Part shown: positions 503 to 44,600 of the stretch, piece after piece
Layout: every line of letters begins with the position of its first letter
How positions within the stretch are numbered: the first letter of the stretch is position 1
Origin: Escherichia coli
Lineage (GTDB): Bacteria; Pseudomonadota; Gammaproteobacteria; Enterobacterales; Enterobacteriaceae
Assembly (NCBI RefSeq): GCF_044324785.1
Contig: NZ_CP172127.1
Strand: one strand, 5' to 3'
DNA length: 64,000 nt
The notes under the pieces: model-generated
Told to the model about the DNA's origin: nothing
Databases searched by the model: none
Seen by the model: the letters and a program-made list of their open reading frames with translations, nothing else
Position numbers and translations under genes: made by a program

Positions 503-2740
503 GTGGACTGGCTTCTTGATGTTTTTGCTACCTGGCTCTACGGCTTAAAAGTAATCGCGATAACGTTAGCGGTCATCATGTTCATCAGCGGGCTGGACGA
601 TTTTTTTATTGATGTCGTCTACTGGGTACGCCGCATTAAACGCAAGTTGAGTGTTTATCGCCGCTACCCGCGAATGAGTTACCGCGAACTGTATAAACCA
701 GATGAAAAACCGTTAGCGATTATGGTTCCGGCGTGGAATGAAACGGGCGTCATCGGCAATATGGCCGAGCTGGCGGCGACCACGCTCGACTATGAAAACT
801 ATCATATCTTTGTTGGCACCTACCCCAACGACCCCGATACTCAGCGTGATGTTGACGAAGTGTGCGCTCGCTTCCCAAACGTGCATAAGGTAGTCTGCGC
901 GCGTCCTGGCCCCACCAGCAAAGCCGACTGCCTGAACAACGTGCTGGACGCCATCACCCAGTTTGAGCGTAGCGCCAATTTCGCTTTCGCTGGTTTTATT
1001 CTGCATGACGCCGAAGACGTAATTTCACCGATGGAATTGCGTTTGTTCAACTATCTGGTCGAGCGTAAAGATCTGATTCAGATCCCGGTATACCCATTCG
1101 AACGCGAATGGACGCACTTCACCAGCATGACTTACATTGATGAGTTTTCAGAACTGCATGGCAAAGATGTTCCGGTGCGTGAAGCCCTCGCCGGACAGGT
1201 GCCCAGCGCAGGCGTCGGCACCTGTTTCAGCCGCCGCGCCGTGACCGCACTGTTAGCTGACGGTGACGGTATTGCTTTCGACGTGCAGAGTCTTACTGAA
1301 GATTACGACATTGGTTTCCGCCTGAAAGAAAAAGGTATGACGGAAATTTTTGTCCGTTTTCCGGTGGTGGACGAAGCCAAAGAACGCGAGCAGCGTAAAT
1401 TTTTACAGCACGCGCGGACGTCAAACATGATCTGCGTGCGCGAATATTTCCCTGATACCTTTTCGACTGCGGTTCGACAAAAATCTCGCTGGATCATCGG
1501 CATTGTTTTCCAGGGCTTTAAAACCCATAAATGGACCTCCAGCCTGACGCTGAACTACTTTCTCTGGCGCGACCGCAAAGGGGCAATCAGTAACTTTGTC
1601 AGCTTCCTCGCGATGCTGGTGATGATCCAGCTTTTGCTGTTACTGGCGTATGAAAGTTTGTGGCCCGATGCCTGGCATTTCCTTTCTATTTTCAGCGGCA
1701 GCGCATGGTTAATGACCCTGCTGTGGCTAAACTTTGGTTTGATGGTTAACCGCATCGTGCAGCGGGTGATTTTTGTCACTGGCTACTACGGTCTGACGCA
1801 GGGGCTGCTATCTGTCCTGCGTCTTTTCTGGGGCAACCTGATTAACTTCATGGCCAACTGGCGCGCGTTAAAACAGGTACTTCAACACGGCGATCCACGT
1901 CGCGTCGCGTGGGATAAAACAACGCATGACTTCCCCAGCGTGACTGGCGATACCCGCTCGTTGCGCCCGTTAGGCCAAATTCTGCTGGAAAATCAGGTCA
2001 TCACTGAAGAACAACTCGATACAGCACTGCGTAATCGCGTCGAAGGTCTACGCCTGGGCGGTTCAATGCTGATGCAGGGGCTGATTAGCGCCGAACAGCT
2101 GGCACAGGCGCTGGCAGAGCAAAACGGCGTGGCGTGGGAGTCGATCGACGCCTGGCAGATCCCTTCATCACTGATTGCCGAAATGCCGGCCTCCGTGGCG
2201 CTGCATTATGCAGTGCTGCCGCTGCGTCTGGAAAATGATGAGTTAATTGTCGGCAGTGAAGATGGTATTGACCCGGTTTCGCTGGCGGCCCTGACGCGTA
2301 AAGTCGGACGCAAAGTGCGTTACGTCATTGTTCTGCGCGGACAAATTGTCACGGGGTTACGTCACTGGTATGCACGCCGACGCGGTCACGATCCGCGGGC
2401 AATGTTGTACAATGCGGTTCAGCATCAGTGGCTCACGGAACAGCAGGCCGGTGAAATCTGGCGGCAATATGTGCCGCATCAGTTCCTGTTCGCCGAAATA
2501 CTGACCACGCTCGGTCATATTAATCGTTCAGCAATTAACGTGTTGTTATTGCGCCATGAACGCAGTTCTCTGCCGCTCGGCAAGTTTTTGGTCACCGAAG
2601 GCGTTATCAGCCAGGAAACGTTGGATCGCGTCCTGACAATTCAACGCGAATTACAAGTTTCGATGCAATCACTATTACTCAAAGCAGGTTTAAACACAGA
2701 ACAGGTTGCGCAACTGGAGTCCGAAAATGAAGGAGAATAA
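503..2740 (+). CDS. nfrB: Bacteriophage N4 adsorption protein B (family-2 glycosyltransferase, inner membrane)
   Basis: 745-aa ORF with GTG start; sequence and length match recalled E. coli NfrB; followed by nfrA with overlapping stop/start. Confidence 0.9.
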   Translation: MDWLLDVFATWLYGLKVIAITLAVIMFISGLDDFFIDVVYWVRRIKRKLSVYRRYPRMSYRELYKPDEKPLAIMVPAWNETGVIGNMAELAATTLDYENYHIFVGTYPNDPDTQRDVDEVCARFPNVHKVVCARPGPTSKADCLNNVLDAITQFERSANFAFAGFILHDAEDVISPMELRLFNYLVERKDLIQIPVYPFEREWTHFTSMTYIDEFSELHGKDVPVREALAGQVPSAGVGTCFSRRAVTALLADGDGIAFDVQSLTEDYDIGFRLKEKGMTEIFVRFPVVDEAKEREQRKFLQHARTSNMICVREYFPDTFSTAVRQKSRWIIGIVFQGFKTHKWTSSLTLNYFLWRDRKGAISNFVSFLAMLVMIQLLLLLAYESLWPDAWHFLSIFSGSAWLMTLLWLNFGLMVNRIVQRVIFVTGYYGLTQGLLSVLRLFWGNLINFMANWRALKQVLQHGDPRRVAWDKTTHDFPSVTGDTRSLRPLGQILLENQVITEEQLDTALRNRVEGLRLGGSMLMQGLISAEQLAQALAEQNGVAWESIDAWQIPSSLIAEMPASVALHYAVLPLRLENDELIVGSEDGIDPVSLAALTRKVGRKVRYVIVLRGQIVTGLRHWYARRRGHDPRAMLYNAVQHQWLTEQQAGEIWRQYVPHQFLFAEILTTLGHINRSAINVLLLRHERSSLPLGKFLVTEGVISQETLDRVLTIQRELQVSMQSLLLKAGLNTEQVAQLESENEGE

Positions 2741-5699
2741 CCTTAATCGCGTCATCGGATGGTCTGGTTTACTGCTGACGTCTTTATTGAGTACCAGCGC
2801 ACTCGCAGACAATATCGACACCAGCGCAGAAGAGCTGGGGCTGAGCGATTATCGCCATTTTGTTATTTATCCCCGTCTCGATAAGGCGCTGAAGGCACAG
2901 AAAAATAACGACGAAGCAACCGCCATCCGCGAATTTGAATATATACACCAGCAGGTGCCGGATAATATTCCGCTGACTTTATACCTTGCGGAAGCCTATC
3001 GCCATTTTGGTCATGATGCCCGGGCGCGGCTGTTGCTTGAGGATCAACTGAAACGTCATCCAGGAGATGCCCGACTTGAGCGCAGTCTGGCGGCTATTCC
3101 AGTTGAAGTGAAAAGCGTTACGACTGTTGAAGAACTGCTTGCCCAGCAAAAATCGTGCGACGCTGCGCCGACCCTGCGTTGTCGCAGTGAAGTCGGGCAG
3201 AATGCCCTGCGGCTGGCACAATTACCTGTCGCCAGAGCGCAACTGAACGATGCGACGTTTGCTGCATCGCCGGAAGGAAAAACGCTGCGAACCGATCTGC
3301 TGCAACGCGCAATCTACCTGAAACAATGGTCCCAGGCAGATACGCTATACAATGAAGCACGCCAGCAGAACACATTAAGCGCGGCAGAACGCCGTCAGTG
3401 GTTTGACGTGCTTCTTGCCGGGCAGCTGGACGATCGGATCCTGGCGCTGCAATCACAGGGGATCTTCACCGATCCGCAGTCATATATTACTTACGCGACC
3501 GCGCTGGCTTATCGTGGCGAAAAAGCACGCCTCCAGCGTTATCTCATTGAAAATAAGCCGCTGTTTACCACGGACGTACAAGAGAAAAGTTGGCTCTATC
3601 TGTTATCTAAATACAGCGTCAACCCCGTTCAGGCGTTGGCGAATTATACGGTACAGTTTGCCGATAACCGCCAGTATGTTGTTGGCGCGACGCTACCGGT
3701 GCTGTTAAAAGAAGGTCAGTACGACGCAGCGCAAAAACTGCTCGCCACCCTCCCCGCCAATGAAATGCTTGAGGAGCGTTATACCGTTAGCGTAGCGACC
3801 CATAACAAGGCTGAAGCTCTGCGTCTGGCACGATTGCTGTATCAGCAAGAACCGGCAAATCTTACCCGCCTGGATCAACTGACCTGGCAACTGATGCAGA
3901 ACGAGCAGTCACGCGAAGCTGCCGATTTATTGCTGCAACGCTATCCTTTCCAGGGCGATGCGCGTGTCAGCCAGACTTTAATGGCGCGACTGGCGTCTCT
4001 GCTGGAAAGTCATCCTTACCTGGCAACTCCGGCGAAAGTGGCAATTTTATCGAAACCCTTACCGCTGGCAGAGCAACGTCAGTGGCAAAGTCAGTTGCCG
4101 GGTATTGCAGATAATTGCCCGGCAATAGTTCGCTTGCTGGGCGATATGTCGCCTTCCTACGATGCCGCCGCCTGGAACCGTCTGGCAAAGTGTTATCGGG
4201 ACACGCTACCCGGTGTGGCGTTGTATGCATGGCTTCAGGCCGAACAACGACAACCGAACGCCTGGCAACATCGTGCGGTAGCCTATCAGGCGTATCAGGT
4301 TGAAGACTACGCCACCGCACTGGCGGCCTGGCAGAAAATCAGTCTTCACGACATGAGCAATGAGGATCTGCTTGCTGCTGCCAATACCGCCCAGGCGGCA
4401 GGAAATGGTGCGGCTCGCGATCGCTGGCTTCAGCAGGCAGAACAACGTGGGCTGGGAAACAATGCCCTCTACTGGTGGCTGCATGCGCAACGTTACATTC
4501 CTGGTCAGCCGGAACTCGCACTGAACGATCTCACGCGCTCAATCAATATTGCGCCTTCTGCCAACGCTTACGTTGCGCGGGCGACAATTTATCGCCAACG
4601 TCATAATGTCCCGGCGGCGGTGAGTGATTTGCGCGCCGCTCTGGAACTGGAACCGAATAATAGCAACACCCAGGCAGCGCTTGGTTACGCCTTGTGGGAT
4701 AGCGGTGATATCGCACAGTCGCGGGAAATGCTCGAACAGGCGCATAAAGGGCTACCGGACGATCCGGCACTTATCCGACAACTGGCCTACGTGAACCAGC
4801 GTCTGGATGACATGCCTGCGACGCAGCACTACGCCCGGCTGGTGATTGATGACATTGATAATCAGGCGCTGATAACCCCACTGACCCCAGAGCAAAATCA
4901 GCAACGCTTCAATTTCCGCCGTCTGCATGAGGAGGTCGGTCGCCGCTGGACGTTCAGTTTCGATTCTTCTATCGGCTTGCGTTCCGGCGCAATGAGTACC
5001 GCTAACAATAATGTCGGCGGCGCAGCACCAGGGAAAAGCTATCGTAGCTACGGGCAACTGGAAGCCGAGTACCGCATCGGACGCAATATGCTGCTGGAAG
5101 GCGACCTGCTCTCGGTTTACAGCCGCGTATTTGCCGATACCGGAGAAAACGGGGTGATGATGCCGGTGAAAAATCCGATGTCCGGCACCGGTCTGCGCTG
5201 GAAGCCGCTGCGCGATCAGATCTTTTTCCTCGCCGTCGAACAGCAGTTGCCGCTGAACGGGCAAAATGGCGCATCCGATACCATGCTGCGCGCCAGCGCC
5301 TCATTCTTTAATGGCGGCAAATACAGCGACGAATGGCACCCGAACGGTTCAGGCTGGTTTGCCCAAAACCTGTACCTCGATGCGGCGCAATATGTCCGCC
5401 AGGATATTCAGGCGTGGACGGCAGACTATCGCGTAAGCTGGCATCAGAAGGTGGCGAACGGACAGACTATTGAGCCTTACGCTCACGTTCAGGACAACGG
5501 TTATCGTGATAAAGGCACTCAGGGCGCGCAGCTTGGCGGTGTCGGGGTCCGCTGGAATATCTGGACCGGCGAGACGCACTACGACGCCTGGCCGCACAAA
5601 GTCAGTCTCGGCATCGAATATCAACATACCTTTAAGGCGATTAATCAACGTAACGGAGAGCGCAACAACGCGTTTCTCACCATCGGAGTGCACTGGTAA
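2727..5699 (+). CDS. nfrA: Bacteriophage N4 adsorption protein A (outer membrane, TPR-containing)
   Basis: ORF 2706..5699; start placed at internal Met (MKENNLNRVIGW…) giving 990 aa with signal peptide; matches recalled NfrA. Confidence 0.9.
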   Translation: MKENNLNRVIGWSGLLLTSLLSTSALADNIDTSAEELGLSDYRHFVIYPRLDKALKAQKNNDEATAIREFEYIHQQVPDNIPLTLYLAEAYRHFGHDARARLLLEDQLKRHPGDARLERSLAAIPVEVKSVTTVEELLAQQKSCDAAPTLRCRSEVGQNALRLAQLPVARAQLNDATFAASPEGKTLRTDLLQRAIYLKQWSQADTLYNEARQQNTLSAAERRQWFDVLLAGQLDDRILALQSQGIFTDPQSYITYATALAYRGEKARLQRYLIENKPLFTTDVQEKSWLYLLSKYSVNPVQALANYTVQFADNRQYVVGATLPVLLKEGQYDAAQKLLATLPANEMLEERYTVSVATHNKAEALRLARLLYQQEPANLTRLDQLTWQLMQNEQSREAADLLLQRYPFQGDARVSQTLMARLASLLESHPYLATPAKVAILSKPLPLAEQRQWQSQLPGIADNCPAIVRLLGDMSPSYDAAAWNRLAKCYRDTLPGVALYAWLQAEQRQPNAWQHRAVAYQAYQVEDYATALAAWQKISLHDMSNEDLLAAANTAQAAGNGAARDRWLQQAEQRGLGNNALYWWLHAQRYIPGQPELALNDLTRSINIAPSANAYVARATIYRQRHNVPAAVSDLRAALELEPNNSNTQAALGYALWDSGDIAQSREMLEQAHKGLPDDPALIRQLAYVNQRLDDMPATQHYARLVIDDIDNQALITPLTPEQNQQRFNFRRLHEEVGRRWTFSFDSSIGLRSGAMSTANNNVGGAAPGKSYRSYGQLEAEYRIGRNMLLEGDLLSVYSRVFADTGENGVMMPVKNPMSGTGLRWKPLRDQIFFLAVEQQLPLNGQNGASDTMLRASASFFNGGKYSDEWHPNGSGWFAQNLYLDAAQYVRQDIQAWTADYRVSWHQKVANGQTIEPYAHVQDNGYRDKGTQGAQLGGVGVRWNIWTGETHYDAWPHKVSLGIEYQHTFKAINQRNGERNNAFLTIGVHW

Positions 5700-6590
5700 A
5701 TGCGTAAGTTCATTTTCGTATTGCTGACACTGCTTTTGGTCAGCCCTTTTTCCTTTGCGATGAAAGGTATTATCTGGCAACCACAAAACCGTGATAGTCA
5801 GGTTACCGATACCCAGTGGCAGGGGCTGATGAGTCAGTTACGTTTGCAAGGCTTCGATACCCTGGTTTTGCAATGGACCCGTTACGGCGATGCATTCACC
5901 CAGCCAGAACAGCGCGCGTTATTGTTTAAGCGTGCCGCAGCTGCGCAACAGGCTGGCCTGAAGCTGATTGTCGGGCTGAACGCCGATCCGGAATTTTTTA
6001 TACACCAGAAACAGTCATCCGCGGCGCTGGAAAGCTATCTTAATCGCCTGCTGGCTGCCGATCTCCAGCAAGCCAGATTATGGAGCGCCGCGCCTGGCGT
6101 AACGCCGGATGGCTGGTACATCAGCGCGGAAATTGACGACCTGAACTGGCGTAGCGAAGCCGCCCGTCAGCCTTTGCTAACATGGTTAAACAACGCGCAG
6201 CGGCTGATTAGCGATGTTTCAGCAAAACCGGTTTATATCAGTAGTTTTTTCGCCGGAAACATGTCGCCCGATGGCTATCGCCAACTGCTGGAACACGTTA
6301 AAGCAACCGGCGTTAATGTCTGGGTACAGGATGGCAGCGGCGTGGATAAACTTACTGCTGAACAGCGTGAACGTTATCTACAGGCCAGCGCCGATTGCCA
6401 AAGCTCCGCCCCAGCAAGCGGCATTGTTTATGAACTGTTTGTCGCCGGCAAAGGCAAAACCTTTACAGCGAAACCGAAACCGGATGCAGAGATCGCCTCG
6501 CTGTTAGCGAAACGTTCCTCTTGCGGTAAAGACACGCTCTATTTCTCTCTGCGCTATTTGCCCGTCGCACACGGCATTCTCGAGTATTAA
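5700..6590 (+). CDS. ybcH: Uncharacterized exported protein YbcH
   Basis: 296-aa ORF with N-terminal signal peptide, directly after nfrA stop (TAA-ATG); synteny nfrB-nfrA-ybcH-envY. Confidence 0.8.
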   Translation: MRKFIFVLLTLLLVSPFSFAMKGIIWQPQNRDSQVTDTQWQGLMSQLRLQGFDTLVLQWTRYGDAFTQPEQRALLFKRAAAAQQAGLKLIVGLNADPEFFIHQKQSSAALESYLNRLLAADLQQARLWSAAPGVTPDGWYISAEIDDLNWRSEAARQPLLTWLNNAQRLISDVSAKPVYISSFFAGNMSPDGYRQLLEHVKATGVNVWVQDGSGVDKLTAEQRERYLQASADCQSSAPASGIVYELFVAGKGKTFTAKPKPDAEIASLLAKRSSCGKDTLYFSLRYLPVAHGILEY

Positions 6591-6772
6591 ATCCCTTCCA
6601 GGTAAGTCGGGTACGACCTGACTTACCACTTTCGCTCTCGTCAGAATTCCATCAAGATTAATTGCTAAAAAGCATGCTAAAGAAAGAAGATCGTTATCGG
6701 CGAACGGGCCGATCACTCATGCAGGAAGCATAGATCCTTTGAGCGGAGTTTCTGATATCTGAGGAGTGCGAA

Positions 6773-7534
6773 ATGCAATTGAGCAGCAGTGAACCTTGCG
6801 TGGTGATCCTGACCGAAAAAGAGGTAGAGGTAAGCGTTAATAACCATGCCACGTTTACCCTTCCGAAAAATTACCTGGCCGCCTTCGCGTGCAACAATAA
6901 CGTCATTGAACTCTCAACGTTAAATCACGTATTAATCACCCACATCAACCGCAACATCATCAACGATTATCTGTTGTTTTTAAATAAGAACTTAACCTGT
7001 GTAAAGCCCTGGTCGCGGCTGGCTACCCCGGTTATCGCTTGTCATAGCCGTACACCGGAAGTGTTCCGGCTAGCCGCCAACCACAGCAAGCAGCAACCCA
7101 GCAAACCCTGCGAAGCGGAGTTGACGCGCGCATTGCTTTTTACCGTATTGTCTAACTTTCTTGAGCAATCGCGGTTTATTGCCCTACTGATGTATATCTT
7201 ACGCAGCAGCGTCCGCGACAGCGTCTGCCGCATTATTCAAAGCGATATTCAGCATTACTGGAATCTGCGAATTGTCGCCAGTTCGCTATGTTTAAGCCCC
7301 AGCCTGCTCAAAAAGAAATTAAAAAACGAAAATACCAGCTATAGCCAGATTGTCACAGAGTGTCGTATGCGTTACGCCGTACAGATGTTATTGATGGATA
7401 ACAAAAATATCACTCAGGTAGCGCAATTATGTGGCTATAGCAGCACGTCGTACTTTATCTCTGTTTTTAAGGCGTTTTACGGCCTGACACCGTTGAATTA
7501 TCTCGCCAAACAGCGACAAAAAGTGATGTGGTGA
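6773..7534 (+). CDS. envY: AraC-family transcriptional regulator EnvY (porin thermoregulation)
   Basis: 253-aa ORF with C-terminal AraC-type HTH (…ITQVAQLCGYSSTSYFISVFKAFYGLTP…); synteny next to ompT. Confidence 0.85.
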   Translation: MQLSSSEPCVVILTEKEVEVSVNNHATFTLPKNYLAAFACNNNVIELSTLNHVLITHINRNIINDYLLFLNKNLTCVKPWSRLATPVIACHSRTPEVFRLAANHSKQQPSKPCEAELTRALLFTVLSNFLEQSRFIALLMYILRSSVRDSVCRIIQSDIQHYWNLRIVASSLCLSPSLLKKKLKNENTSYSQIVTECRMRYAVQMLLMDNKNITQVAQLCGYSSTSYFISVFKAFYGLTPLNYLAKQRQKVMW

Positions 7535-7577
7535 AGGGCAAAGCGGAAACGGATAAGACGGGCATAAATGAAGAAGA

Positions 7578-7624
7578 AATGGCGCGCCCTGCAGGATTCG
7601 AACCTGCGGCCCACGACTTAGAAG
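7578..7624. repeat. 47-bp direct repeat identical to the 3' part of tRNA-Arg (57505-57551); distal attachment-site copy of the integrated element
   Basis: Exact 47-nt match read by eye (aatggcgcgccctgcaggattcgaacctgcggcccacgacttagaag) at both positions; identity breaks on both sides. Confidence 0.8.
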
Positions 7625-8046
7625 TTCCTAGAACGACATTTTAAGTCAACAACTTACCGCGCCATCTCTGCGCTCACACGTCCCACTACCTCAAAACATG
7701 TAAAGCCTTGCAAGCCATTGTGAGGCCTTATGTGTCTCAGTTTTGTCCCTCTTTTTTGTACCAAAAAACATAGCAATTGAGGATAAACCTCATGCTATTT
7801 TCGCTTATATGCCTCTAAAGGCATGGCGCTTAAATAGATAAAAACACCACAAAAGCATAAAAAACCACACAGTAAAACCGCAACATAAAACAATAACAGA
7901 TAATTAAACCAAAAACAGATAGCGCATTGTGATAATCATTCAATACTAAACAAAATATAAACAGTGGAGCAATATGTAATTGACTCATTAAGTTAGATAT
8001 AAAAAATACATATTCAATCATTAAAACGATTGAATGGAGAACTTTT

Positions 8047-9000
8047 ATGCGGGCGAAACTTCTGGGAATAGTCCTGACAACCCCTATTGCGATCAGCTCT
8101 TTTGCTTCTACCGAGACTATATCGTTTACTCCTGACAACATAAATGCGGACATTAGTCTTGGAACTCTGAGCGGAAAAACAAAAGAGCGCGTTTATCTAG
8201 CTGAAGAAGGAGGCCGAAAAGTCAGTCAACTCGACTGGAAATTCAATAACGCTGCAATTATTAAAGGTGCAATTAATTGGGATTTGATGCCCCAGATATC
8301 TATTGGGGCTGCGGGCTGGACTACTCTCGGCAGCCGGGGTGGCAATATGGTCGATCAGGACTGGATGGATTCCAGTAACCCCGGAACCTGGACAGATGAA
8401 AGTAGGCACCCTGATACACAACTCAATTATGCTAACGAATTTGATCTGAATATCAAAGGCTGGCTCCTCAACGAACCCAATTACCGCCTGGGACTCATGG
8501 CCGGATATCAGGAAAGCCGTTATAGCTTTACAGCCAGAGGTGGTTCCTATATCTACAGTTCTGAGGAGGGATTCAGAGATGATATCGGCTCCTTCCCGAA
8601 TGGAGAAAGAGCAATCGGCTACAAACAACGTTTTAAAATGCCCTACATTGGCTTGACTGGAAGTTATCGTTATGAAGATTTTGAACTCGGTGGCACATTT
8701 AAATACAGCGGCTGGGTGGAATCATCTGATAACGATGAACACTATGACCCGGGAAAAAGAATCACTTATCGCAGTAAGGTCAAAGACCAAAATTACTATT
8801 CTGTTGCAGTCAATGCAGGTTATTACGTAACACCTAACGCAAAAGTTTATGTTGAAGGCGCATGGAATCGGGTTACGAATAAAAAAGGTAATACTTCACT
8901 TTATGATCACAATGATAACACTTCAGACTACAGCAAAAATGGTGCAGGCATAGAAAACTATAACTTCATCACTACTGCTGGTCTTAAGTACACCTTTTAA
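8047..9000 (+). CDS. ompT: Outer membrane protease OmpT (omptin family)
   Basis: 317-aa ORF with signal peptide; sequence matches recalled OmpT (MRAKLLGIVLTTPIAISSFA…). Confidence 0.9.
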   Translation: MRAKLLGIVLTTPIAISSFASTETISFTPDNINADISLGTLSGKTKERVYLAEEGGRKVSQLDWKFNNAAIIKGAINWDLMPQISIGAAGWTTLGSRGGNMVDQDWMDSSNPGTWTDESRHPDTQLNYANEFDLNIKGWLLNEPNYRLGLMAGYQESRYSFTARGGSYIYSSEEGFRDDIGSFPNGERAIGYKQRFKMPYIGLTGSYRYEDFELGGTFKYSGWVESSDNDEHYDPGKRITYRSKVKDQNYYSVAVNAGYYVTPNAKVYVEGAWNRVTNKKGNTSLYDHNDNTSDYSKNGAGIENYNFITTAGLKYTF

Positions 9001-9230
9001 CAACGTTAAATAGATTTTCTCCCCGGTGGTATTGTATCGCCCCGGGGAATTTGTTTACCGTTAAGAGCAACAATATCCCCTAAACTTGTAAGCATTTAAC
9101 CTGCCTCCTAACGTGTAAGCTCTTACCACAACACTAGACTCAATATATTCAAATTCGCTATGCCGTGACATCATTTAACACCTTGTAATTCATCGCCATA
9201 ATTGATTTAATTCACAAATAAAACTATAAC

Positions 9231-9899
9231 ATGGTGAAATTGATGAAAAAAAACACAGATGATGGGGCTAAAATTTACACACCACTTACCCTAAAGCTTT
9301 ATGACTGGTGGGTTTTGGGAGTATCAAATCGGCTTGCATGGGGATGTCCTACAAAGGAACACCTTCTTCCACACTTTCTGGAACATTTAGGTAACAACCA
9401 TCTGGATATTGGTGTTGGAACTGGGTTTTACCTTACTCACGTACCTGAGAGTAGTCTGATATCTTTAATGGATTTGAACGAAGCTAGCCTGAACGCGGCA
9501 TCTACAAGGGCTGGGGAATCAAAAATTAAACATAAAATTAGCCATGATGTTTTTGAACCTTATCCCGCGGCGTTACATGGCCAATTTGATTCCATTTCCA
9601 TGTTTTACCTTCTTCACTGCCTGCCTGGAAATATATCTACAAAAAGCTGTGTAATACGCAATGCGGCGCAGGCCTTAACTGACGATGGAACTCTATACGG
9701 AGCCACAATTCTTGGCGATGGAGTTGTGCACAATAGCTTCGGTCAAAAACTGATGCGCATTTACAATCAGAAAGGCATCTTTTCAAACACAAAAGATTCC
9801 GAAGAAGGCTTAACACATATACTCTCAGAGCATTTCGAGAATGTTAAAACCAAGGTTCAAGGTACTGTAGTAATGTTTTCCGCTTCAGGGAAAAAATAG
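9231..9899 (+). CDS. Class I SAM-dependent methyltransferase (YbcY-like)
   Basis: 222-aa ORF with methyltransferase motif I (LDIGVGTGFYL); AT-rich codon usage compared with flanking phage genes. Confidence 0.65.
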   Translation: MVKLMKKNTDDGAKIYTPLTLKLYDWWVLGVSNRLAWGCPTKEHLLPHFLEHLGNNHLDIGVGTGFYLTHVPESSLISLMDLNEASLNAASTRAGESKIKHKISHDVFEPYPAALHGQFDSISMFYLLHCLPGNISTKSCVIRNAAQALTDDGTLYGATILGDGVVHNSFGQKLMRIYNQKGIFSNTKDSEEGLTHILSEHFENVKTKVQGTVVMFSASGKK

Positions 9900-36764: not shown

Positions 36765-37123
36765 ACATCCCGGTTTCTTCCACCATCGCACCGGAAAAGC
36801 GACTATGAGGGTAACCCTGCGTCTGTCAGCACAGTAAAACCCGGTGTGCATCGTTTTTGATTATTCCCGCACACTCACGCAGAAGGAATTCCCCGTCGGG
36901 CTACGGTCATGGTTAATGCGGGAATACGGCGACGATACAGCGCAGCTAAAAGGGTAATAGACGGATAGACCGGTTTATTTCATTCCACAGGATTCTGAGT
37001 GCCCCCCTCCTCCAATAGGCTGAGCATCCACCTATATAGTTTTAATTTTCATCAATCCATTTAACTATCGTTTAATTGTTGTCACATAGGATTCTGCCGT
37101 TTTTAACAATGCAGGATAATAAG

Positions 37124-37417
37124 ATGAAAAAAATGTTGTTTTCTGCCGCTCTGGCAATGCTTATTACAGGATGTGCTCAACAGACGTTTACTGTTGGAAA
37201 CAAACCGACAGCAGTAACACCAAAGGAAACCATCACCCATCACTTCTTCGTTTCGGGAATTGGACAGGAGAAAACTGTTGATGCAGCCAAAATTTGTGGC
37301 GGCGCAGAAAATGTTGTTAAAACAGAAACCCAGCAAACATTCGTAAATGGATTGCTCGGTTTTATTACTTTAGGCATTTATACTCCGCTGGAAGCGCGTG
37401 TGTATTGCTCACAATAA
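37124..37417 (+). CDS. bor: Bor lipoprotein (serum-resistance-associated)
   Basis: ORF 37076..37417; start at MKKMLFSAALAMLITGCAQQ… (lipobox LITGC) as in lambda Bor; opposite orientation to the lysis genes as in lambda. Confidence 0.85.
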   Translation: MKKMLFSAALAMLITGCAQQTFTVGNKPTAVTPKETITHHFFVSGIGQEKTVDAAKICGGAENVVKTETQQTFVNGLLGFITLGIYTPLEARVYCSQ

Positions 37418-37448: not shown

Positions 37449-37910
37449 CTATCTGCACTGCTCATTAATATACTTCTGGGTTCCTTCCAGTTGTTTTTGC
37501 ATAGTGATCAGCCTCTCTCTGAGGGTGAAATAATCCCGTTCAGCGGTGTCTGCCAGTCGGGGGGAGGCTGCATTATCCACGCCGGAGGCGGTGGTGGCTT
37601 CACGCACTGACTGACAGACTGCTTTGATGTGCAACCGACGACGACCAGCGGCAACATCATCACGCAGAGCATCATTTTCAGCTTTCGCATTAGCTAACTC
37701 CTTCGTGTATTTTTCATCCAGTGCAGCAACATCACGCTGGCGCATCTGCATGCCAGTAATTGCCGCGTTCGCCAGCTTCAGTTCTCTGGCATTTTTGTCG
37801 CGCTGGGCTTTGTAGGTAATGGCGTTATCACGGTAATGATTAACAGCCCATGACAGGCAGACGATGATGCAGATAACCAGAGCGGAGATAATCGCGGTTA
37901 CTCTGTTCAT
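37449..37910 (-). CDS. Rz: Spanin inner-membrane subunit Rz
   Basis: ORF 37449..37922; from [29 protein letters not shown]… near-identical to lambda Rz. Confidence 0.85.
37508..37690 (-). CDS. Rz1: Spanin outer-membrane lipoprotein Rz1 (embedded in Rz, +1 frame)
   Basis: 60-aa ORF wholly inside Rz; lipobox VVGC and PPPPP motif, near-identical to lambda Rz1. Confidence 0.85.
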
Positions 37911-38404
37911 TGCTGGCCCCACAAACAGATTTCACGCTCAATCTCACGACGAGTCATGAGACCTTTCCATTGCTTACCGCCAGCATATGTCCAGCGACGT
38001 AGTTGATCACATGCGCCTTTGATATCGCCCTGGTTTATTTTGCGAAGAAGCGTCGATGTTCTGAAATTGCCAGCACCCACGTTGTAAACGAATGAGTAAA
38101 GAGCGCCGCGCGTTGTTTCCGGTATATCGACTTTGATGTACGGGTTAATTTGTCTGGCGACAGTGGCAAGGTCTTTATTCAAGAGTGCTTTGCATTCTGC
38201 TTTGGTATACGTTTTACCGAGCATGATGTCTTTTCCTGTATGCCCGTGACATACAGTCCATACACCAACAATATCTTTGTATGGTATGTAGCTGACACCT
38301 TCCAGACCATCGTTACCACTTGGGCCAGTGATTAACACTGATGCTATAGCAATTGCTCCGCCACCAATAGCAGCAGCAACGGCTTTTCGTAATGATGGAG
38401 GCAT
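37907..38404 (-). CDS. R: Endolysin with N-terminal signal-anchor-release domain (T4-lysozyme-like, phage 21 R / RrrD type)
   Basis: 165-aa ORF; Gly/Ala-rich hydrophobic N-terminus ([20 protein letters not shown]) then lysozyme fold; matches recalled DLP12 RrrD. Confidence 0.85.
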
Positions 38405-38619
38405 TATTCACCTCTCGCAGCCTTGCGCTTATCTTCTTTAATCTTGAAATAAAGGTTTGTCAGGTACGTCAGCAGGCCAAATACCAGGCTACCCAGCACA
38501 CCTATTGCTGCCCACTGTGAGGGCGTGACTTTATCGAGCAGCTGTAAAAACCAGTAGCCAGCACTGCCTGCGGAGGTGCCGTAGGCAATGCCCGTTGTTA
38601 ACTTATCCATGGATTTCAT
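38404..38619 (-). CDS. S: Pinholin (S21 / EssD type)
   Basis: 71-aa ORF with two TM segments directly upstream of the endolysin; stop/start overlap with R. Confidence 0.8.
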
Positions 38620-38807
38620 AGCCTCACCTCCGCAAATAACGGATGGTGTACACGGTTCGGAACGAAGAGGAAAGGTATAGAAGTTACATTAGCGTAAGGC
38701 TTGAACATCTATTCAAAAAGAAAAACGCCAGCGATTATTCTGGCGTAGCTGAAAGCATCATACAATTATCAAATACGAAAAATACAAAATCATTAAAACG
38801 CATCACG

Positions 38808-39537
38808 TTACATCATGTCTTTTTCTAAAAAAAATCTTGATAAATATTGATGGGGAGGAACACCAAAATATCTTCTGAAAACACTTACAAAATATGACGT
38901 GTTTTCATAACCGCATATCTCAGCAACTTTTCCAACAGAATATAAATTGTAGCTTAATAACCTTTCCGCCATCACCATTCGCTCTTCAAGAATTAATTTA
39001 CTAAATGATAAGCCTTCGTGCTTTAATTTTCTTTTTAACAGACTTTCACTCAGATACAGTCTTGAAGATATATCACAAAGTCTCCATGCTGCAGATATAT
39101 CCGTGTGAATAATAGCCTTAACTTTACTTCCTAAACTATTAAGACATCCAAATAAAAACTTTGCACTATTTTCTCTGAAGATAAGATAGCAAGACATGCA
39201 AGTGATATTTGATTTCTAACAAAATCCACAGTTCTGCCATCACAATTCAAGCATGCAATCAAGTTCTTTAACAATGAAAAATCTTCACATTCCACCATCA
39301 AGTATGCCGGATAAAACCTTCTTACAGAAAAAGGTGAGAGTGTGTTGCTTTTAAAGAAATCATTAACTGTTTTCTCTTCAACATCTACGATCATTACATG
39401 ATCTATATTTGATGAAAAAAATCTTTTAAATTGTAATCAATGAGAACAGCACTTCCTTTTTTAAACAAAATATCTTCTTTACCAATTCGGACATCAAACG
39501 AGTTCAACACCAAAATGATAGAACATATGTATGGCAT
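38808..39537 (-). pseudogene. AraC/XylS-family regulator disrupted by frameshifts (three consecutive ORF pieces)
   Basis: Fragments 39537-39400 (MPYICSIILVLNSFDVRIGKEDILF…, read manually), 39394-39131 and 39197-38808 (C-terminal AraC HTH …CGYENTSYFVSVFRRYFGVPP…) lie in different frames in collinear order; AT-rich. Confidence 0.55.
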
Positions 39538-39888
39538 ATTATCCACCTGATATCATTGGGGTTACACCAGGTAAGTATAGGTGGAAAATCAATATTCGCC
39601 AGTTCAACAATAAGGAAAATCTCATTGCATCACAAGTATAAAATTATGTATTTAACTCACAAAGACAAATTATTAAACCAATCTGTTATATTATATATAG
39701 CTGCGTGGAATCATAATATTATATATTTTGACTGGCATGTTTACCAACTTTAAGTTGCATCTCAATGGTTTCTTCAGCGTAAACAGAGTTTTTATACAAA
39801 CTGACACTCTGGGTATCATAGTGTAGTTTTTACGATTGTAAATATCCTGCATGCAGGAACTCATCCTTTTGGATGATATCGCATACAA

Positions 39889-40848
39889 TTAATTTACCAT
39901 CAGTCTTAGAGCCAGTTCGTCCGGATAGGGATCGAAGTAATTCTGTGTAAGCAAGTAGTCATTAGGATACTCACCCAGATAATGCTTCAGCAGAGTCAAC
40001 GGCGCAAGAAGAGGTAATGTGCCAGAACGATAGTTAAGTATAACCTCGCTCAACTCTTTACGCTGGCGTGTACTTAAGTAGTTACTAAAATACCCCTGTA
40101 TATGCATCAGCACATTCGTGTGATTTTTACGTGATGCAGGTTTTCTGAGAATCGCCATCAGCTTATCACGATACACCTCAAAGTATGATTCAAGGTCCGC
40201 CCACTCGTGTATTGCAGCCACAAATGGTCCCATATCTTTATAGCCTGCCTGACTATGCGCCAACAACTGAAGCTTATAACGACTATGAAAAGCTAATAAC
40301 TCTCTTCTTGATAATTTCTCCTTGTAAAGGTGATTGAGCTCATGCAAAGCAAAAACTCTTTCAACAAAATTCTCACGAAGCACTGGATCATGTAATCGCC
40401 CATCCTCTTCAACCGGTAGCCAGGAAAACTTTTCCATCAAAGTGCTCGTAAATAGTCCCACTCCATCTTTACGACCTCGATTACCATTTTCATCATAGAC
40501 ACGCACGCGCTCCATGCCACAGCTGGGAGATTTAGCACAAACCACAAACCCCGATACATCCTTTAATTTGTCCATATAAGAACGACTAAACTCTGTCATT
40601 CTCTCTGTCACATCCTCATTCTGGTCGTGGCTGAAACACATCCGTATATTTCCTTGCGTCGAGCGCACAAGACGTAGAGCAGGACGCGGAACTGGCAGCC
40701 CTATAGCCATTTCCGGACATACTGGTCTGAATGTTACCCATTCCACTAATTTGTCCATTAAAAAGTCAGCTCTTTTGTGACCACCATCAAAACGAACAGC
40801 AGAACCGGCCAAACAACCGCTGATTCCAATCACAGGTTTTTTTATCAT
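39889..40848 (-). CDS. DUF523/DUF1722-type protein (possible 2-thiouracil desulfurase-like family), phage cargo
   Basis: 319-aa ORF; N-terminal PVIGISGCLAG… region and C-terminal YbgA-like region; family assignment from memory only. Confidence 0.45.
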   Translation of the reverse strand: MIKKPVIGISGCLAGSAVRFDGGHKRADFLMDKLVEWVTFRPVCPEMAIGLPVPRPALRLVRSTQGNIRMCFSHDQNEDVTERMTEFSRSYMDKLKDVSGFVVCAKSPSCGMERVRVYDENGNRGRKDGVGLFTSTLMEKFSWLPVEEDGRLHDPVLRENFVERVFALHELNHLYKEKLSRRELLAFHSRYKLQLLAHSQAGYKDMGPFVAAIHEWADLESYFEVYRDKLMAILRKPASRKNHTNVLMHIQGYFSNYLSTRQRKELSEVILNYRSGTLPLLAPLTLLKHYLGEYPNDYLLTQNYFDPYPDELALRLMVN

Positions 40849-41040
40849 ATTCTCCCCCTTGACTAATTCATTAACACATAAACTGTGTAGTGCACGGAAT
40901 AAATTGCCTTTCTGGCGTCATCACTGACAATTTTTCTGTTATGGACTATTCCTAATATAGTATGAAAGTTCTTTAAGTGATCGGTCGTAATCATCTATCT
41001 TTCATACTTACTCTCAACTATCAAAAGTACAGGATTTATT

Positions 41041-41565
41041 ATGAAGTTATGGCCTGTGTTGACTGGCATTGCACTCTCTTTCACTCTTATAGCATGTAAG
41101 GCCCCGACACCACCTAAAGGTGTGCAGCCGATTACAAATTTTGACGCCAACCGCTACCTCGGAAAATGGTATGAAATAGCTCGCCTCGAGAACCGGTTCG
41201 AACGTGGTCTGGAACAGGTCAGCGCTACTTATGGAAAACGGAACGACGGAGGGATTCGTGTACTTAACCGTGGATACGATCCAACGAAAAATAAATGGAG
41301 CGAGAGCGAAGGTAAAGCATACTTTACTGGAGATACTAAAACTGCAGCGTTGAAGGTTTCGTTTTTTGGCCCCTTCTATGGTGGCTATAATGTAATCAAA
41401 CTGGATGATGAGTATAAGTATGCTCTTGTCAGTGGCCCGAACAGAGAATACCTATGGATTCTGGCAAGGACCCCAACTATTCCAGATAAAGTAAAAGCAG
41501 ACTATGTGCGAACCGCTCAAAAGTTGGGATTCAATGTCAATGAATTATTATGGGTTAAACAATAA
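41041..41565 (+). CDS. Outer-membrane lipocalin (Blc-like lipoprotein)
   Basis: 174-aa ORF with lipobox (LIAC) and lipocalin motifs (…NRYLGKWYEIARL…SFFGPFYGGYNVI…); paralog-level similarity to E. coli Blc. Confidence 0.8.
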   Translation: MKLWPVLTGIALSFTLIACKAPTPPKGVQPITNFDANRYLGKWYEIARLENRFERGLEQVSATYGKRNDGGIRVLNRGYDPTKNKWSESEGKAYFTGDTKTAALKVSFFGPFYGGYNVIKLDDEYKYALVSGPNREYLWILARTPTIPDKVKADYVRTAQKLGFNVNELLWVKQ

Positions 41566-41593
41566 AATCCCTACCCGAAATAATACTTATTAG

Positions 41594-41620
41594 AAAAAAA
41601 CCAGCCTTTGGGGAGGCTGG
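41594..41620 (-). terminator. Candidate late terminator tR' (intrinsic, minus strand)
   Basis: Hairpin ccagcc-(8 nt)-ggctgg followed on the minus strand by a 7-T run, about 65 nt downstream of the putative pR'. Confidence 0.45.
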
Positions 41621-41679
41621 CTAAATCAGGAAACAAGCTGTTATATGATAATAACTACGTTGCGATTCTAACATTTAAA

Positions 41680-41708
41680 ATGTTAGACTAATGAGAATCA
41701 GACAGCAA
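41680..41708 (-). promoter_or_regulatory. Candidate late promoter pR' (Q-utilization region)
   Basis: Minus strand TTGCTG-17 nt-TAACAT directly downstream of the Q stop. Confidence 0.35.
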
Positions 41709-41720
41709 CTTTTCCTTTAA

Positions 41721-42113
41721 TTATTTCGAACAATCAGCATCCATCTCCAATCGGAGATCCAACACCATCAGCATACCCTCCACTACGCCCTCAGCTTTCT
41801 GGAGCATCCTGCCAACCCAACAATCAGATCGCCCATGCTTACGTGCAAGCGCCATAAAAGTCATGCCGCCGACATAATAGTCCACCAATAAATCATGCAA
41901 ATCGCTGTTGTTCTTTTTCAGACGGGCCATGCACCCGCAAATGATCATCGCGTCATCGTCACAACATTGCGGGCGAGATTTTACTTTTGAAGGAATTAAT
42001 CCCTTAAAACCGGCGGCAATGGACGACCAGGTCACATCTTCATGATTATTAGCCGCCCACGCTCCCCAACGCTCAAGAACCATCTGAATATCACGCATCA
42101 ACTTACTCCACAA
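41721..42113 (-). CDS. Q: Late-gene antiterminator Q (QuuD / phage 82-type)
   Basis: 130-aa ORF (start may be internal MRDIQM… at 42098) with Cys cluster ([16 protein letters not shown]) in the canonical position upstream of pR' and lysis genes. Confidence 0.7.
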
Positions 42114-42320: not shown

Positions 42321-42683
42321 TCATTCATTCCCCATTTCGGTGATGGTCAGTTCCAGCCTCCCACCTTTGGTAACAGGCATCTTCACAACGCGGTAATCAA
42401 CGACCTGAGCATCATCCAGCCAGAAACCTGCTTTAGTGAGTGCGTCAAAAGCGGCTTTTTGCAGATTATCCAGGTCACGGCGACGGCGATCCGGCATGTG
42501 GCACTCAATGCGGATTTTCACAGGCATAGCCAGGCCGATATCCAGCATTGCGTTTTTAATGATTCGGGCGACGTTATCGCGGTATGCCTGCCCCTCTGCA
42601 CTGACGTGCGTGCGCCCGCGATTATGGCGGTAATAGCGATTATTGCTCGGAGGCCAGGGTAATGTGATACTGTAGGTATTCAC
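42321..42683 (-). CDS. rusA: Holliday junction resolvase RusA
   Basis: 120-aa ORF matching RusA ([18 protein letters not shown]…). Confidence 0.9.
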
Positions 42684-43802: not shown

Positions 43803-44600
43803 TTACTCTCTGGAAGCTTTTCTTATCTCTCTTGGTGTTATATTAAAACGATTATGAAATCTTTCAGTAAAACGAGAAGGACACTTATAACCATTTTCTC
43901 TGGCAATCTCGCTTATAGGTTTTACCGTCGTTTGTATAGCAGACAACGCATTATTTAACCTCACATCGTCCAGTATACTTTGGAAACTTACCCCCTCGCT
44001 TGCTAGACGGCGATGTAATGTAGAAACAGAAATGTAGAGATATCGAGCAACCTTGTTTGCTGTCCATTTTGTGCCGGGTTCGGATAGCAGCAGGTTATAA
44101 CAACGACTTATCAATGATTGTTTACTATATGATAAAAGTAAATGATTAACATGATTCACTCCTAACGAAAGTAGAACGCCCATTGCTAAGTGCTCCTGAA
44201 TTTTAGTTGAGAAGCCTCGGGAAACAGATGTTTTTAGTTGCTCCCAACAATATATTAACTCAGGATTCTGAGGTAAAAAGAAACTTGTTTTGTTACGTAT
44301 TTGATCAGTTACCGTATAAAGTTTTTGGAAACTCTCAATTAAATCAATGGGTAAGTAAAGCATTTCTGCAAGATAAAGCCCTGCTTCAGGATAATTCTCA
44401 ATATAAAATTCATAACCACAAGGAAATAATATTATTTGATTATTATCAACAGTTAAAGTATGCGTCTCCCAATTGATAACTTTCTTTCCCTGACGGATAC
44501 GACACAAAGCTGGCATAAGAGGCTTAACCCTATGAATCTCATGATGTTTATGCATCCGTATTTCTTCGATCTTTAAGTTAGTCTTACCTCTTGCCAGCAT
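43803..44600 (-). CDS. ybcM: AraC-family transcriptional regulator YbcM
   Basis: 265-aa ORF with C-terminal AraC HTH; matches recalled DLP12 YbcM. Confidence 0.8.

Follow-up and report, generated by a model that had tools for sequence, protein, structure and literature searches.

The 64-kb stretch of Escherichia coli DNA analysed here (the window) is the argU/DLP12 locus, where a lambdoid prophage of the DLP12 type is integrated at argU. Between the antiterminator gene Q and the first lysis gene, essD, this prophage carries a cassette of three genes, encoding a 319-amino-acid protein, a divergently oriented Blc-like lipocalin and a frameshifted regulator of the AraC family. The 319-amino-acid protein is almost certainly RudS, a predicted [4Fe-4S] desulfidase of 4-thiouridine (s4U) in tRNA, and the identities of all the genes are near certain. 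The features of the cassette and its borders, listed from Q towards the lysis genes, are as follows.

A cassette between Q and the lysis genes

41721-42098, minus strand: antiterminator Q of the QuuD type (PHROG family phrog_79, Q-like, E 1e-51), upstream border of the cassette
41590-41720, minus strand: Q-proximal leader with a promoter-like sequence and a strong intrinsic terminator, in what we take to be the position of lambda pR'-tR'
41599-41622 (stem, followed by a T run), minus strand: tR'-like terminator, from a terminator scan
41041-41565, plus strand: blc-like gene, 174 amino acids, divergent from rudS, convergent with Q and antisense to the late operon
40849-41040, no strand assigned: divergent blc/rudS intergenic region, 192 nucleotides, with weak promoter-like matches only
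39889-40848, minus strand: rudS, 319 amino acids, predicted fusion of TudS and DUF1722 domains, on the same strand as Q and essD and sense within the late operon
39538-39888, minus strand: AT-rich spacer upstream of the araC-like gene, ~30% guanine plus cytosine (GC)
38808-39537, minus strand: AraC/XylS regulator pseudogene (PatE/YdeO-like) with two frameshifts, 243 amino acids in its intact form
38725-38746, minus strand: intrinsic terminator closing the cargo, 62 nucleotides past the araC-like stop codon and ~105 nucleotides before the holin ATG
38404-38619, minus strand: holin gene essD (PHROG holin), first lysis gene and downstream border of the cassette
37907-38404, minus strand: endolysin gene

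The late region of the prophage lies on the minus strand in the order rusA, Q, a 3.1-kb interval, the holin gene essD, endolysin and spanin. For an identical sequence, RefSeq names the product of Q an 'antiterminator Q family protein' (WP_001204777.1). The gene matches K-12 quuD with 98% DNA identity as far as position 41739. At this point, within the last codons of Q, the homology with K-12 DLP12 ends, and it resumes at 38630, 11 nucleotides before the essD ATG; the borders of the cassette are accordingly set at 41738 and 38631. This break and resumption identify the Q-to-S interval as an allelic cassette that takes the place of nmpC::IS5 in K-12. The comparison thus agrees with the preliminary description of this DNA, which had placed the genes in the Q-to-S cargo slot of lambdoid phages, and the three cargo genes lie exactly where that description had put them. 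The same slot, from Q and pR'-tR' to the holin, is occupied by stx in Stx phages and by nmpC in K-12 DLP12, that is, by a toxin and a porin, whereas the cargo in the window consists of a predicted tRNA-modification eraser and a lipocalin.

The insert had also been called AT-rich. This is correct but the composition is uneven: the GC content is 32% in the araC-like gene and 44% in both blc and rudS, and the flanking DNA has about 45-53%. No transposase or integrase gene was found within the cassette segment, and no direct or inverted repeats were found at its borders; a mobile-element origin of the cassette was rejected on these grounds.

Products of the cassette genes

Profile searches assign two Pfam domains to the 319-amino-acid protein, 2-thiour_desulf (PF04463, formerly DUF523; residues 7-149, E 1.6e-39) and DUF1722 (PF08349; residues 192-309, E 2.2e-40). 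The preliminary description of a DUF523/DUF1722-like protein in late-operon orientation is therefore well founded, with E values of ~1e-40 for both domains and a gene on the strand of Q. The PHROG family phrog_3275, listed in PHROGs as of unknown function, matches the protein end to end (755 bits). The presence of DUF523 and DUF1722 in one chain places it in the RudS family. This family was already characterised in 2024, and the tested members include an orthologue from the same cassette (PMC11417400). RudS proteins are [4Fe-4S] desulfidases that take 4-thiouridine off tRNA, the TudS domain being catalytic and DUF1722 binding the anticodon region (Jamontas et al. 2024, Nucleic Acids Research, PMC11417400). 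The tested orthologue, RudS_vir, is gp66 of Escherichia phage 1H12 (NC_049947). It is equal in length to the window RudS and identical to it at 299 of the 319 positions (94%), and both the removal of s4U from tRNA and the iron-sulfur cluster of the window protein are predicted from this close relative. The role of the protein in a phage had been given as unknown; this no longer applies to its biochemistry, since the family is described and the 1H12 copy was assayed (PMC11417400), but it still holds for phage biology.

The predicted active site is conserved. Cysteines C12, C44 and C110 of the window RudS occupy the positions given for RudS_vir and RudS_ST (Table 1 of PMC11417400), and C12 and C44 align with C10 and C43 of TudS. 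Together with E46, R55, S107 and S109, these cysteines are invariant among 59 distinct homologues. E46, R55, S107 and S109 correspond to E51, R60, S111 and S113 of RudS_KT, the enzyme of Pseudomonas putida, as mapped through the motifs CPE, PRP and KSPSCG and an offset rather than by direct alignment; mutation of these RudS_KT residues abolished activity (PMC11417400). R19, F20 and G22 of the window protein match R24, Y25 and G27 of RudS_KT, and the position of RudS_KT N26 is taken by D21, which is invariant in the clade.

An AlphaFold2 model of the window RudS has a mean predicted local distance difference test score (pLDDT) of 66.7 and a predicted template modelling score (pTM) of 0.69. In a Foldseek search of the PDB its sole significant matches were the TudS structures 6z92, 6z93, 6z96 and 6zw9 (probability 1.00, target TM score 0.62-0.68). 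The N-terminal half thus has the predicted fold and cluster ligands of TudS (DUF523, PDB 6Z92), and the C-terminal half matches the model of E. coli YbgA, a stand-alone DUF1722 protein, with 191 bits against an equivalog cut-off of 237. The RefSeq name 'YbgA family protein' understates the window RudS, as the score is below the YbgA cut-off and the name covers the C-terminal half only. TudS and YbgA, in contrast to RudS, are single-domain proteins, and neither lowers tRNA s4U alone (PMC11417400). On overexpression every RudS variant tested, RudS_vir included, lowered the s4U content of E. coli tRNA (PMC11417400).

The second gene, which had been described as a divergent Blc-like outer-membrane lipocalin, fits that assignment in all respects examined. 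Its 174-amino-acid product passes the cut-off of the NCBIfam model 'outer membrane lipoprotein Blc' (NF007786; 316.1 bits, cut-off 267) and matches Pfam Lipocalin_2 (PF08212, E 8e-44). The N-terminus, MKLWPVLTGIALSFTLIAC, contains a lipobox, LIAC, at residues 16-19 as read from the translation, which aligns with the lipobox of K-12 Blc. The phage protein is closer to the rudS-linked Blc of Enterobacter cloacae (79% identity) than to K-12 Blc (60%). E. coli Blc (b4149) and the phage protein have in common the lipoprotein signal and lipobox, the Lipocalin_2 fold family and the Blc subfamily; the two genes differ in setting, the host gene being linked to ampC and the phage gene lying antisense inside the late operon. 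Phage blc probably has its own promoter, active in the lysogen.

The third gene is inactivated in the window. Three small minus-strand open reading frames (ORFs) at 38808-39546 are pieces of one AraC-type gene, as had been noticed earlier, and comparison with the intact 243-amino-acid gene of phage IdasGreatGrand traces the disruption to two deletions of a single T on the coding strand, T8 to T7 at 39415-39421 and T6 to T5 at 39154-39158. Putting back one T at both sites restores the full regulator ORF. RefSeq annotates the identical DNA in strain PM22 as a frameshifted pseudogene. The frameshifted state is a minority one. Most of the top E. coli matches and the free phages have an intact gene (243 amino acids; WP_001146309.1). 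Among the viral loci, four carry frameshifts, which in one of them are the two seen in the window, and others have a truncated gene or none; in strain 20A24 an insertion sequence (IS) interrupts the gene.

An intact relative of the regulator contains Pfam HTH_18 (residues 158-234, E 1.9e-14), and the window fragment 38808-39197 matches AraC-family models. The best match of the intact regulator is the YdeO model, which it covers end to end with 127.5 bits, short of the cut-off of 348; it is likewise below every other equivalog cut-off considered (GadX, HilD). By these scores the regulator appears to be a family related to YdeO but distinct from it, PHROG phrog_1450. An alignment with ECs_0287 of the Sakai prophage Sp1 covers 235 of the regulator's 243 residues at 54% identity. 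ECs_0287 is the sole regulator annotated in Sp1, the prophage that matches the patE island OI-8 (patE = z0321), and is presumably PatE. The cassette regulator resembles YdeO and the acid-resistance regulators PatE, PsrA and PsrB of enterohaemorrhagic E. coli prophages in being AraC-like, AT-rich and prophage-borne, and differs from them in its inactivation in the window and in its scores below the equivalog cut-offs.

Further AT-rich genes of the AraC type occur in the same prophage locus, namely ybcM (265 amino acids; 43803-44600, minus strand) and an ORF of the size of appY (9231-9899, plus strand). An origin of the dead regulator as a duplicate of ybcM was rejected, the identity being 22% and limited to the helix-turn-helix region; on the same evidence the two genes are regarded as separate acquisitions.

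Distribution, selection and origin

Of 5426 complete E. coli genomes, 1135 carry rudS, 1063 of them with at least 80% of the gene; strain HS, for example, has a full copy at 98% identity. The statement in PMC11417400 that E. coli is without RudS is true of K-12. BL21, the strain of the published ultraviolet A (UVA) experiment, has only a 147-nucleotide rudS remnant (NZ_CP053601.1, 1558651-1558797), annotated as '2-thiouracil desulfurase family protein'.

Across related prophages the architecture of the cassette is fixed. The order Q, terminator, blc (antisense), rudS, araC-like gene, terminator, S, R and the orientation of these elements are invariant in 36 IMG/VR contigs of the E. coli type and 12 phage records. 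The cassette of phage 1H12 likewise has Q, blc, rudS, a 243-amino-acid regulator and the holin, with 89.5% DNA identity to that of the window; its RudS_vir differs from the window RudS by 20 amino acids and has the same Cys12, Cys44 and Cys110, whereas the window copy belongs to an integrated prophage of the argU/DLP12 locus with a frameshifted regulator. The genomic position, expression and phage role of RudS_vir are not discussed in PMC11417400.

Of 42 viral loci, one has a broken rudS; the gene is intact in nearly all copies, across DNA identity classes from 90 to 100%. Pairwise ratios of nonsynonymous to synonymous substitution rates (dN/dS) are 0.10-0.19 for rudS, 0.06-0.19 for blc and 0.23-0.25 for the regulator, which indicates that rudS and blc are under purifying selection. 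These values bear on the view that the cassette is a neutral hitch-hiker, serving neither phage nor host and simply travelling with a successful Q/lysis module. Such a view is in keeping with the decay of one of the three genes by frameshifts and IS insertions, here and in several relatives, and with the fact that K-12 manages without the cassette and has nmpC there instead. It is nevertheless very unlikely given the dN/dS of 0.06-0.19 for blc and rudS, the integrity of rudS over the whole range of identity classes, the retention of the cassette in plaque-forming or induced phages despite limited genome space, and the independent second capture of rudS described below.

A close donor of the cassette was not found among 100,044 species representatives, in which the best chromosomal RudS, from Citrobacter braakii, C. 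werkmanii and Raoultella, is 76% identical. The nearest chromosomal RudS proteins (66-76% identity, one genome per species) belong to Citrobacter, Raoultella, Kluyvera, Enterobacter, Leclercia and Lelliottia. In 22 of 41 species rudS loci a Blc paralogue, ~80% identical to phage Blc, is encoded upstream of rudS and divergently from it. The commonest chromosomal order is blc in the opposite direction, a MerR-family gene (MlrA/CarH-like), a hydroxyisourate-hydrolase/transthyretin-like gene and rudS. This neighbourhood is found in Enterobacter, Leclercia, Lelliottia and Citrobacter (for example at 4019-6960 of locus L015, and at 21 other loci), and in C. sedlakii and one further Citrobacter the divergent blc and rudS are directly adjacent, as in the phage. 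The word 'lipocalin' is absent from the main text of the RudS paper (PMC11417400).

The divergent synteny and the blc identities suggest that the phage took a chromosomal blc-rudS pair without its MerR regulator. Chromosomal RudS proteins, such as RudS_KT, Salmonella RudS_ST (ORF319 of SPI-2) and that of Enterobacter cloacae, have the same two domains and catalytic residues as the window protein. Their genes are usually paired with a light-linked regulator of the MerR/LitR type and often with a hydroxyisourate-hydrolase-like gene, whereas the phage cassette has neither and its rudS is apparently placed in a Q-controlled operon. The GC content of rudS is 44% in the phage versus 54-58% in the four chromosomal copies measured. 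The araC-like gene is absent from these chromosomal blc-rudS loci, and the regulator appears to have been acquired separately from blc-rudS. The phage blc/rudS spacer could not be aligned with Citrobacter chromosomal spacers, and conserved regulatory sites in it were rejected for that reason.

A second phage lineage carries rudS at another position. Six viral contigs (L084-L089) and a prophage of Citrobacter sp. MGH106 (L018) have a rudS that is 73% identical at the amino acid level in the nin region, where one strand encodes, in order, a primosomal protein, a DnaC-like protein, an activator, a DNA-binding protein and RudS, followed by a terminator, a LexA-boxed dinI, rusA, an HNH gene and Q. 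On contig L084 (5001-6423) the terminator after rudS lies at 6003-6020 and the perfect LexA box of the dinI homologue, CTGTATGAATGTACAG, at 6153-6168. The Citrobacter lambdoid prophages thus appear to have captured rudS independently. The sense orientation of rudS in lytic operons at two unrelated positions favours a role in lytic growth.

Transcription of the cassette and the role of RudS

The tR'-like hairpin that follows Q folds with z = -4.9 relative to shuffled sequences and is kept in phages 1H12 and IdasGreatGrand. Downstream of quuD the window and K-12 have only short blocks in common. Between the Q stop codon and this terminator lies a perfect 21-nucleotide palindrome, TCTAACATTTTAAATGTTAGA (41667-41687), that forms a hairpin of 9 bp; its conservation in 1H12 is no more than partial, and its significance is therefore doubtful. 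Non-coding RNA in the spacers was rejected, as an Rfam search at E <= 0.1 gave one sub-threshold match, the tR' hairpin itself.

Promoter-like matches over the whole region occur at chance level. The good ones lie upstream of the araC-like gene, where the AT-rich spacer has the two best of the region, both sigma-70-like and matching at 10 of 12 positions (TTTACA-16-TATGAT, 39842-39815; TTGGTA-18-TATAAT, 39747-39718). Those upstream of rudS are weak, with one 9/12 match on the minus strand at 41017-40990; the rudS ATG is preceded by a strong Shine-Dalgarno sequence, AAGGGGGAGA. The hairpin of the terminator that closes the cargo is kept in all phage variants, including one with diverged flanks, and no promoter between cargo and holin is conserved among these variants. 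In the functional phage 1H12, 23 nucleotides are missing between the cargo terminator and S, and the sole promoter-like site of this interval is lost with them. Transcripts of S must therefore pass through the cargo, and Q-dependent read-through of rudS is proposed on that basis; the position of rudS, in sense orientation after Q and a pR'/tR'-like leader, points the same way. On this architecture, a dependence of rudS on Q would be reasonable.

We therefore favour, with moderate confidence as to the mode of expression and the benefit, a model in which rudS is carried on the Q-antiterminated late transcript and erases s4U at position 8 (s4U8) of host tRNA at induction. Q-modified RNA polymerase would read past tR', antisense over blc, through rudS and the araC-like gene and past the cargo terminator into S-R-Rz, so that RudS would be made at induction. 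Its TudS domain would bind the [4Fe-4S] cluster through C12, C44 and C110 and, with E46, R55, S107 and S109, would swap the sulfur of 4-thiouridine at tRNA position 8 for oxygen, while DUF1722 would hold the anticodon arm. Without s4U8, near-UV light would lack the crosslinking target through which it stalls aminoacylation and sets off the stringent response, and late phage protein synthesis could continue under prophage-inducing sunlight or UV. The lipocalin gene would have come along with rudS from the enterobacterial chromosomal pair. The low dN/dS of rudS and its integrity in all but one of the viral loci also speak for the model, as does the shorter UVA growth delay seen on RudS_KT overexpression.

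Several observations weigh against this model. The -35 and -10 elements of pR' and a Q-binding element could not be confidently assigned in the post-Q sequence by comparison with K-12. No LexA box was found upstream of rudS, and LexA-box searches of the window stayed at chance level; SOS control of rudS was rejected on this ground and because the box of the Citrobacter lineage belongs to dinI, beyond the rudS terminator. The UVA phenotype belongs to the Pseudomonas enzyme RudS_KT and not to the phage enzyme. RudS_vir was seemingly weaker on tRNA than the other RudS proteins despite a high protein level, and had the shortest lag on 4-thiouracil among them (PMC11417400). Finally, expression in the lysogen would agree equally well with the weak promoter-like site before rudS, with the terminator of the cargo and with a chromosomal origin of the gene.

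The last point concerns lysogenic conversion. Here rudS, together with blc, would be a moron expressed from its own promoter in the uninduced lysogen, where less host s4U would allow quicker recovery from near-UV or sunlight, and the phage would gain through the fitness of its host. As with lysogen-expressed morons, a conserved terminator of its own ends the cargo ahead of the lysis genes; in Enterobacter and Citrobacter relatives the chromosomal blc-rudS locus is of a stress type and usually includes a MerR/CarH-like regulator; intact rudS is kept in many E. coli genomes; and overexpression of RudS_KT shortened the growth delay after UVA from ~105 to ~60 min. However, the 9/12 match is all that precedes rudS in a region with promoter-like matches at chance level, the phage cassette is without the chromosomal MerR regulator and has an unrelated spacer, prolonged RudS overexpression slowed growth after 3 h, and in two independent captures rudS is always sense in lytic operons. 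We consider this explanation doubtful, although it is the strongest of the alternatives.

The behaviour of RudS_vir makes a free-base or nucleotide substrate possible for this enzyme, and with it a salvage function, in which phage RudS would mainly desulfurise free 4-thiouracil or 4-thiouridine monophosphate (4-thio-UMP) from degraded tRNA, like the stand-alone TudS, and would supply phage replication with uracil nucleotides or render thiolated bases harmless. The catalytic domain is indeed a TudS domain. On the other hand, no RudS let cells grow on thiouracils the way TudS did, while all variants lowered tRNA s4U (PMC11417400); the tRNA-binding DUF1722 domain is kept under apparent purifying selection; and the RudS_KT positions R24, Y25 and G27 are retained as R19, F20 and G22, with the clade-invariant D21 in place of N26. 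We judge salvage to be improbable as the main function.

Erasure of s4U could also act through the tRNAs themselves, by altering, to the advantage of the phage, how stable particular species are or how a host defence or toxin that targets tRNA recognises them. Overexpression of RudS_KT halved two tRNA species, and certain tRNAs of Vibrio cholerae are destabilised without s4U. Yet none of the three cassette proteins matched a PADLOC defence-related model, and their membership in a defence system was rejected on that basis; nor does the cassette contain a defence or anti-defence neighbour. We know of no defence in which s4U8 is a determinant. Counter-defence or translational reprogramming of this kind therefore seems highly improbable.

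Taken with the second capture and the chromosomal synteny, the model of Q-dependent expression can be extended, tentatively, to a wider proposal that we regard as possible rather than probable. Temperate enterobacterial phages would deliberately erase s4U8, a near-UV sensor, at induction through a RudS encoded in a lytic operon, so that UVA crosslinking and the stringent response could not brake late protein synthesis. rudS would have been captured at least twice, in the Q-to-S interval in E. coli and in the nin region beside dinI in Citrobacter. The blc-rudS pair would be a so far undescribed conserved photo-/envelope-stress pair of Enterobacteriaceae that was taken as a unit, and a prophage would give about one fifth of the E. 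coli strains with complete genomes a near-UV physiology unlike that of K-12.

As far as could be found, the prevalence of rudS in E. coli, the fixed late-operon architecture, the chromosomal blc-rudS synteny and the second phage capture are apparently new; our literature searches found no paper that joins prophage, lipocalin and YbgA, and none that cites the RefSeq protein accessions of the cassette. RudS is one of the few known bacterial erasers of a tRNA modification, and a phage-borne copy implies that phages may tune the tRNA modification of their hosts. With rudS in 1135 of 5426 genomes, always in a late-operon slot of a prophage, it may be prophages that make E. coli strains differ in s4U level and in growth delay after UVA. 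In its fixed architecture the cassette offers a simple system in which to test at what stage, and to what end, a phage would strip s4U from host tRNA. In other respects this is ordinary lambdoid mosaic cargo, with all three genes from described families, and the PHROG families 3275, 2809 and 1450 could now receive names.

Two further features lie outside the cassette.

42321-42683, minus strand: rusA, an intact ORF of 120 amino acids
57507-57583: tRNA-Arg(tct), adjoining the integrase ORF (387 amino acids; side region 56328-57583)

The opposite end of the window (503-9899) contains ORFs of the sizes of nfrB, nfrA, ybcH, envY, ompT and appY. The region of ybcL, ybcM, ybcN, ninE, ybcO and rusA is 98% identical to K-12. 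The window prophage is nearly complete and lambda-like, with head, tail and replication genes (compare strain FFFEB2), whereas DLP12 of K-12 is a remnant. RefSeq marks rusA as frameshifted in the closely related prophages of strains FFFEB2 and 20A24, in contrast to the intact gene of the window. Just beyond the spanin, at 37076-37417 on the plus strand, lies a gene for an outer-membrane lipoprotein of the Bor/Iss type, whose counterpart in related strains is annotated in RefSeq as 'increased serum survival lipoprotein Iss'; it is a second envelope lipoprotein on this prophage, beside Blc. Near the tail-fibre assembly end, the Rfam family IS009 RNA is matched at 12777-12975 on the minus strand, with 228 bits against a gathering score of 117.

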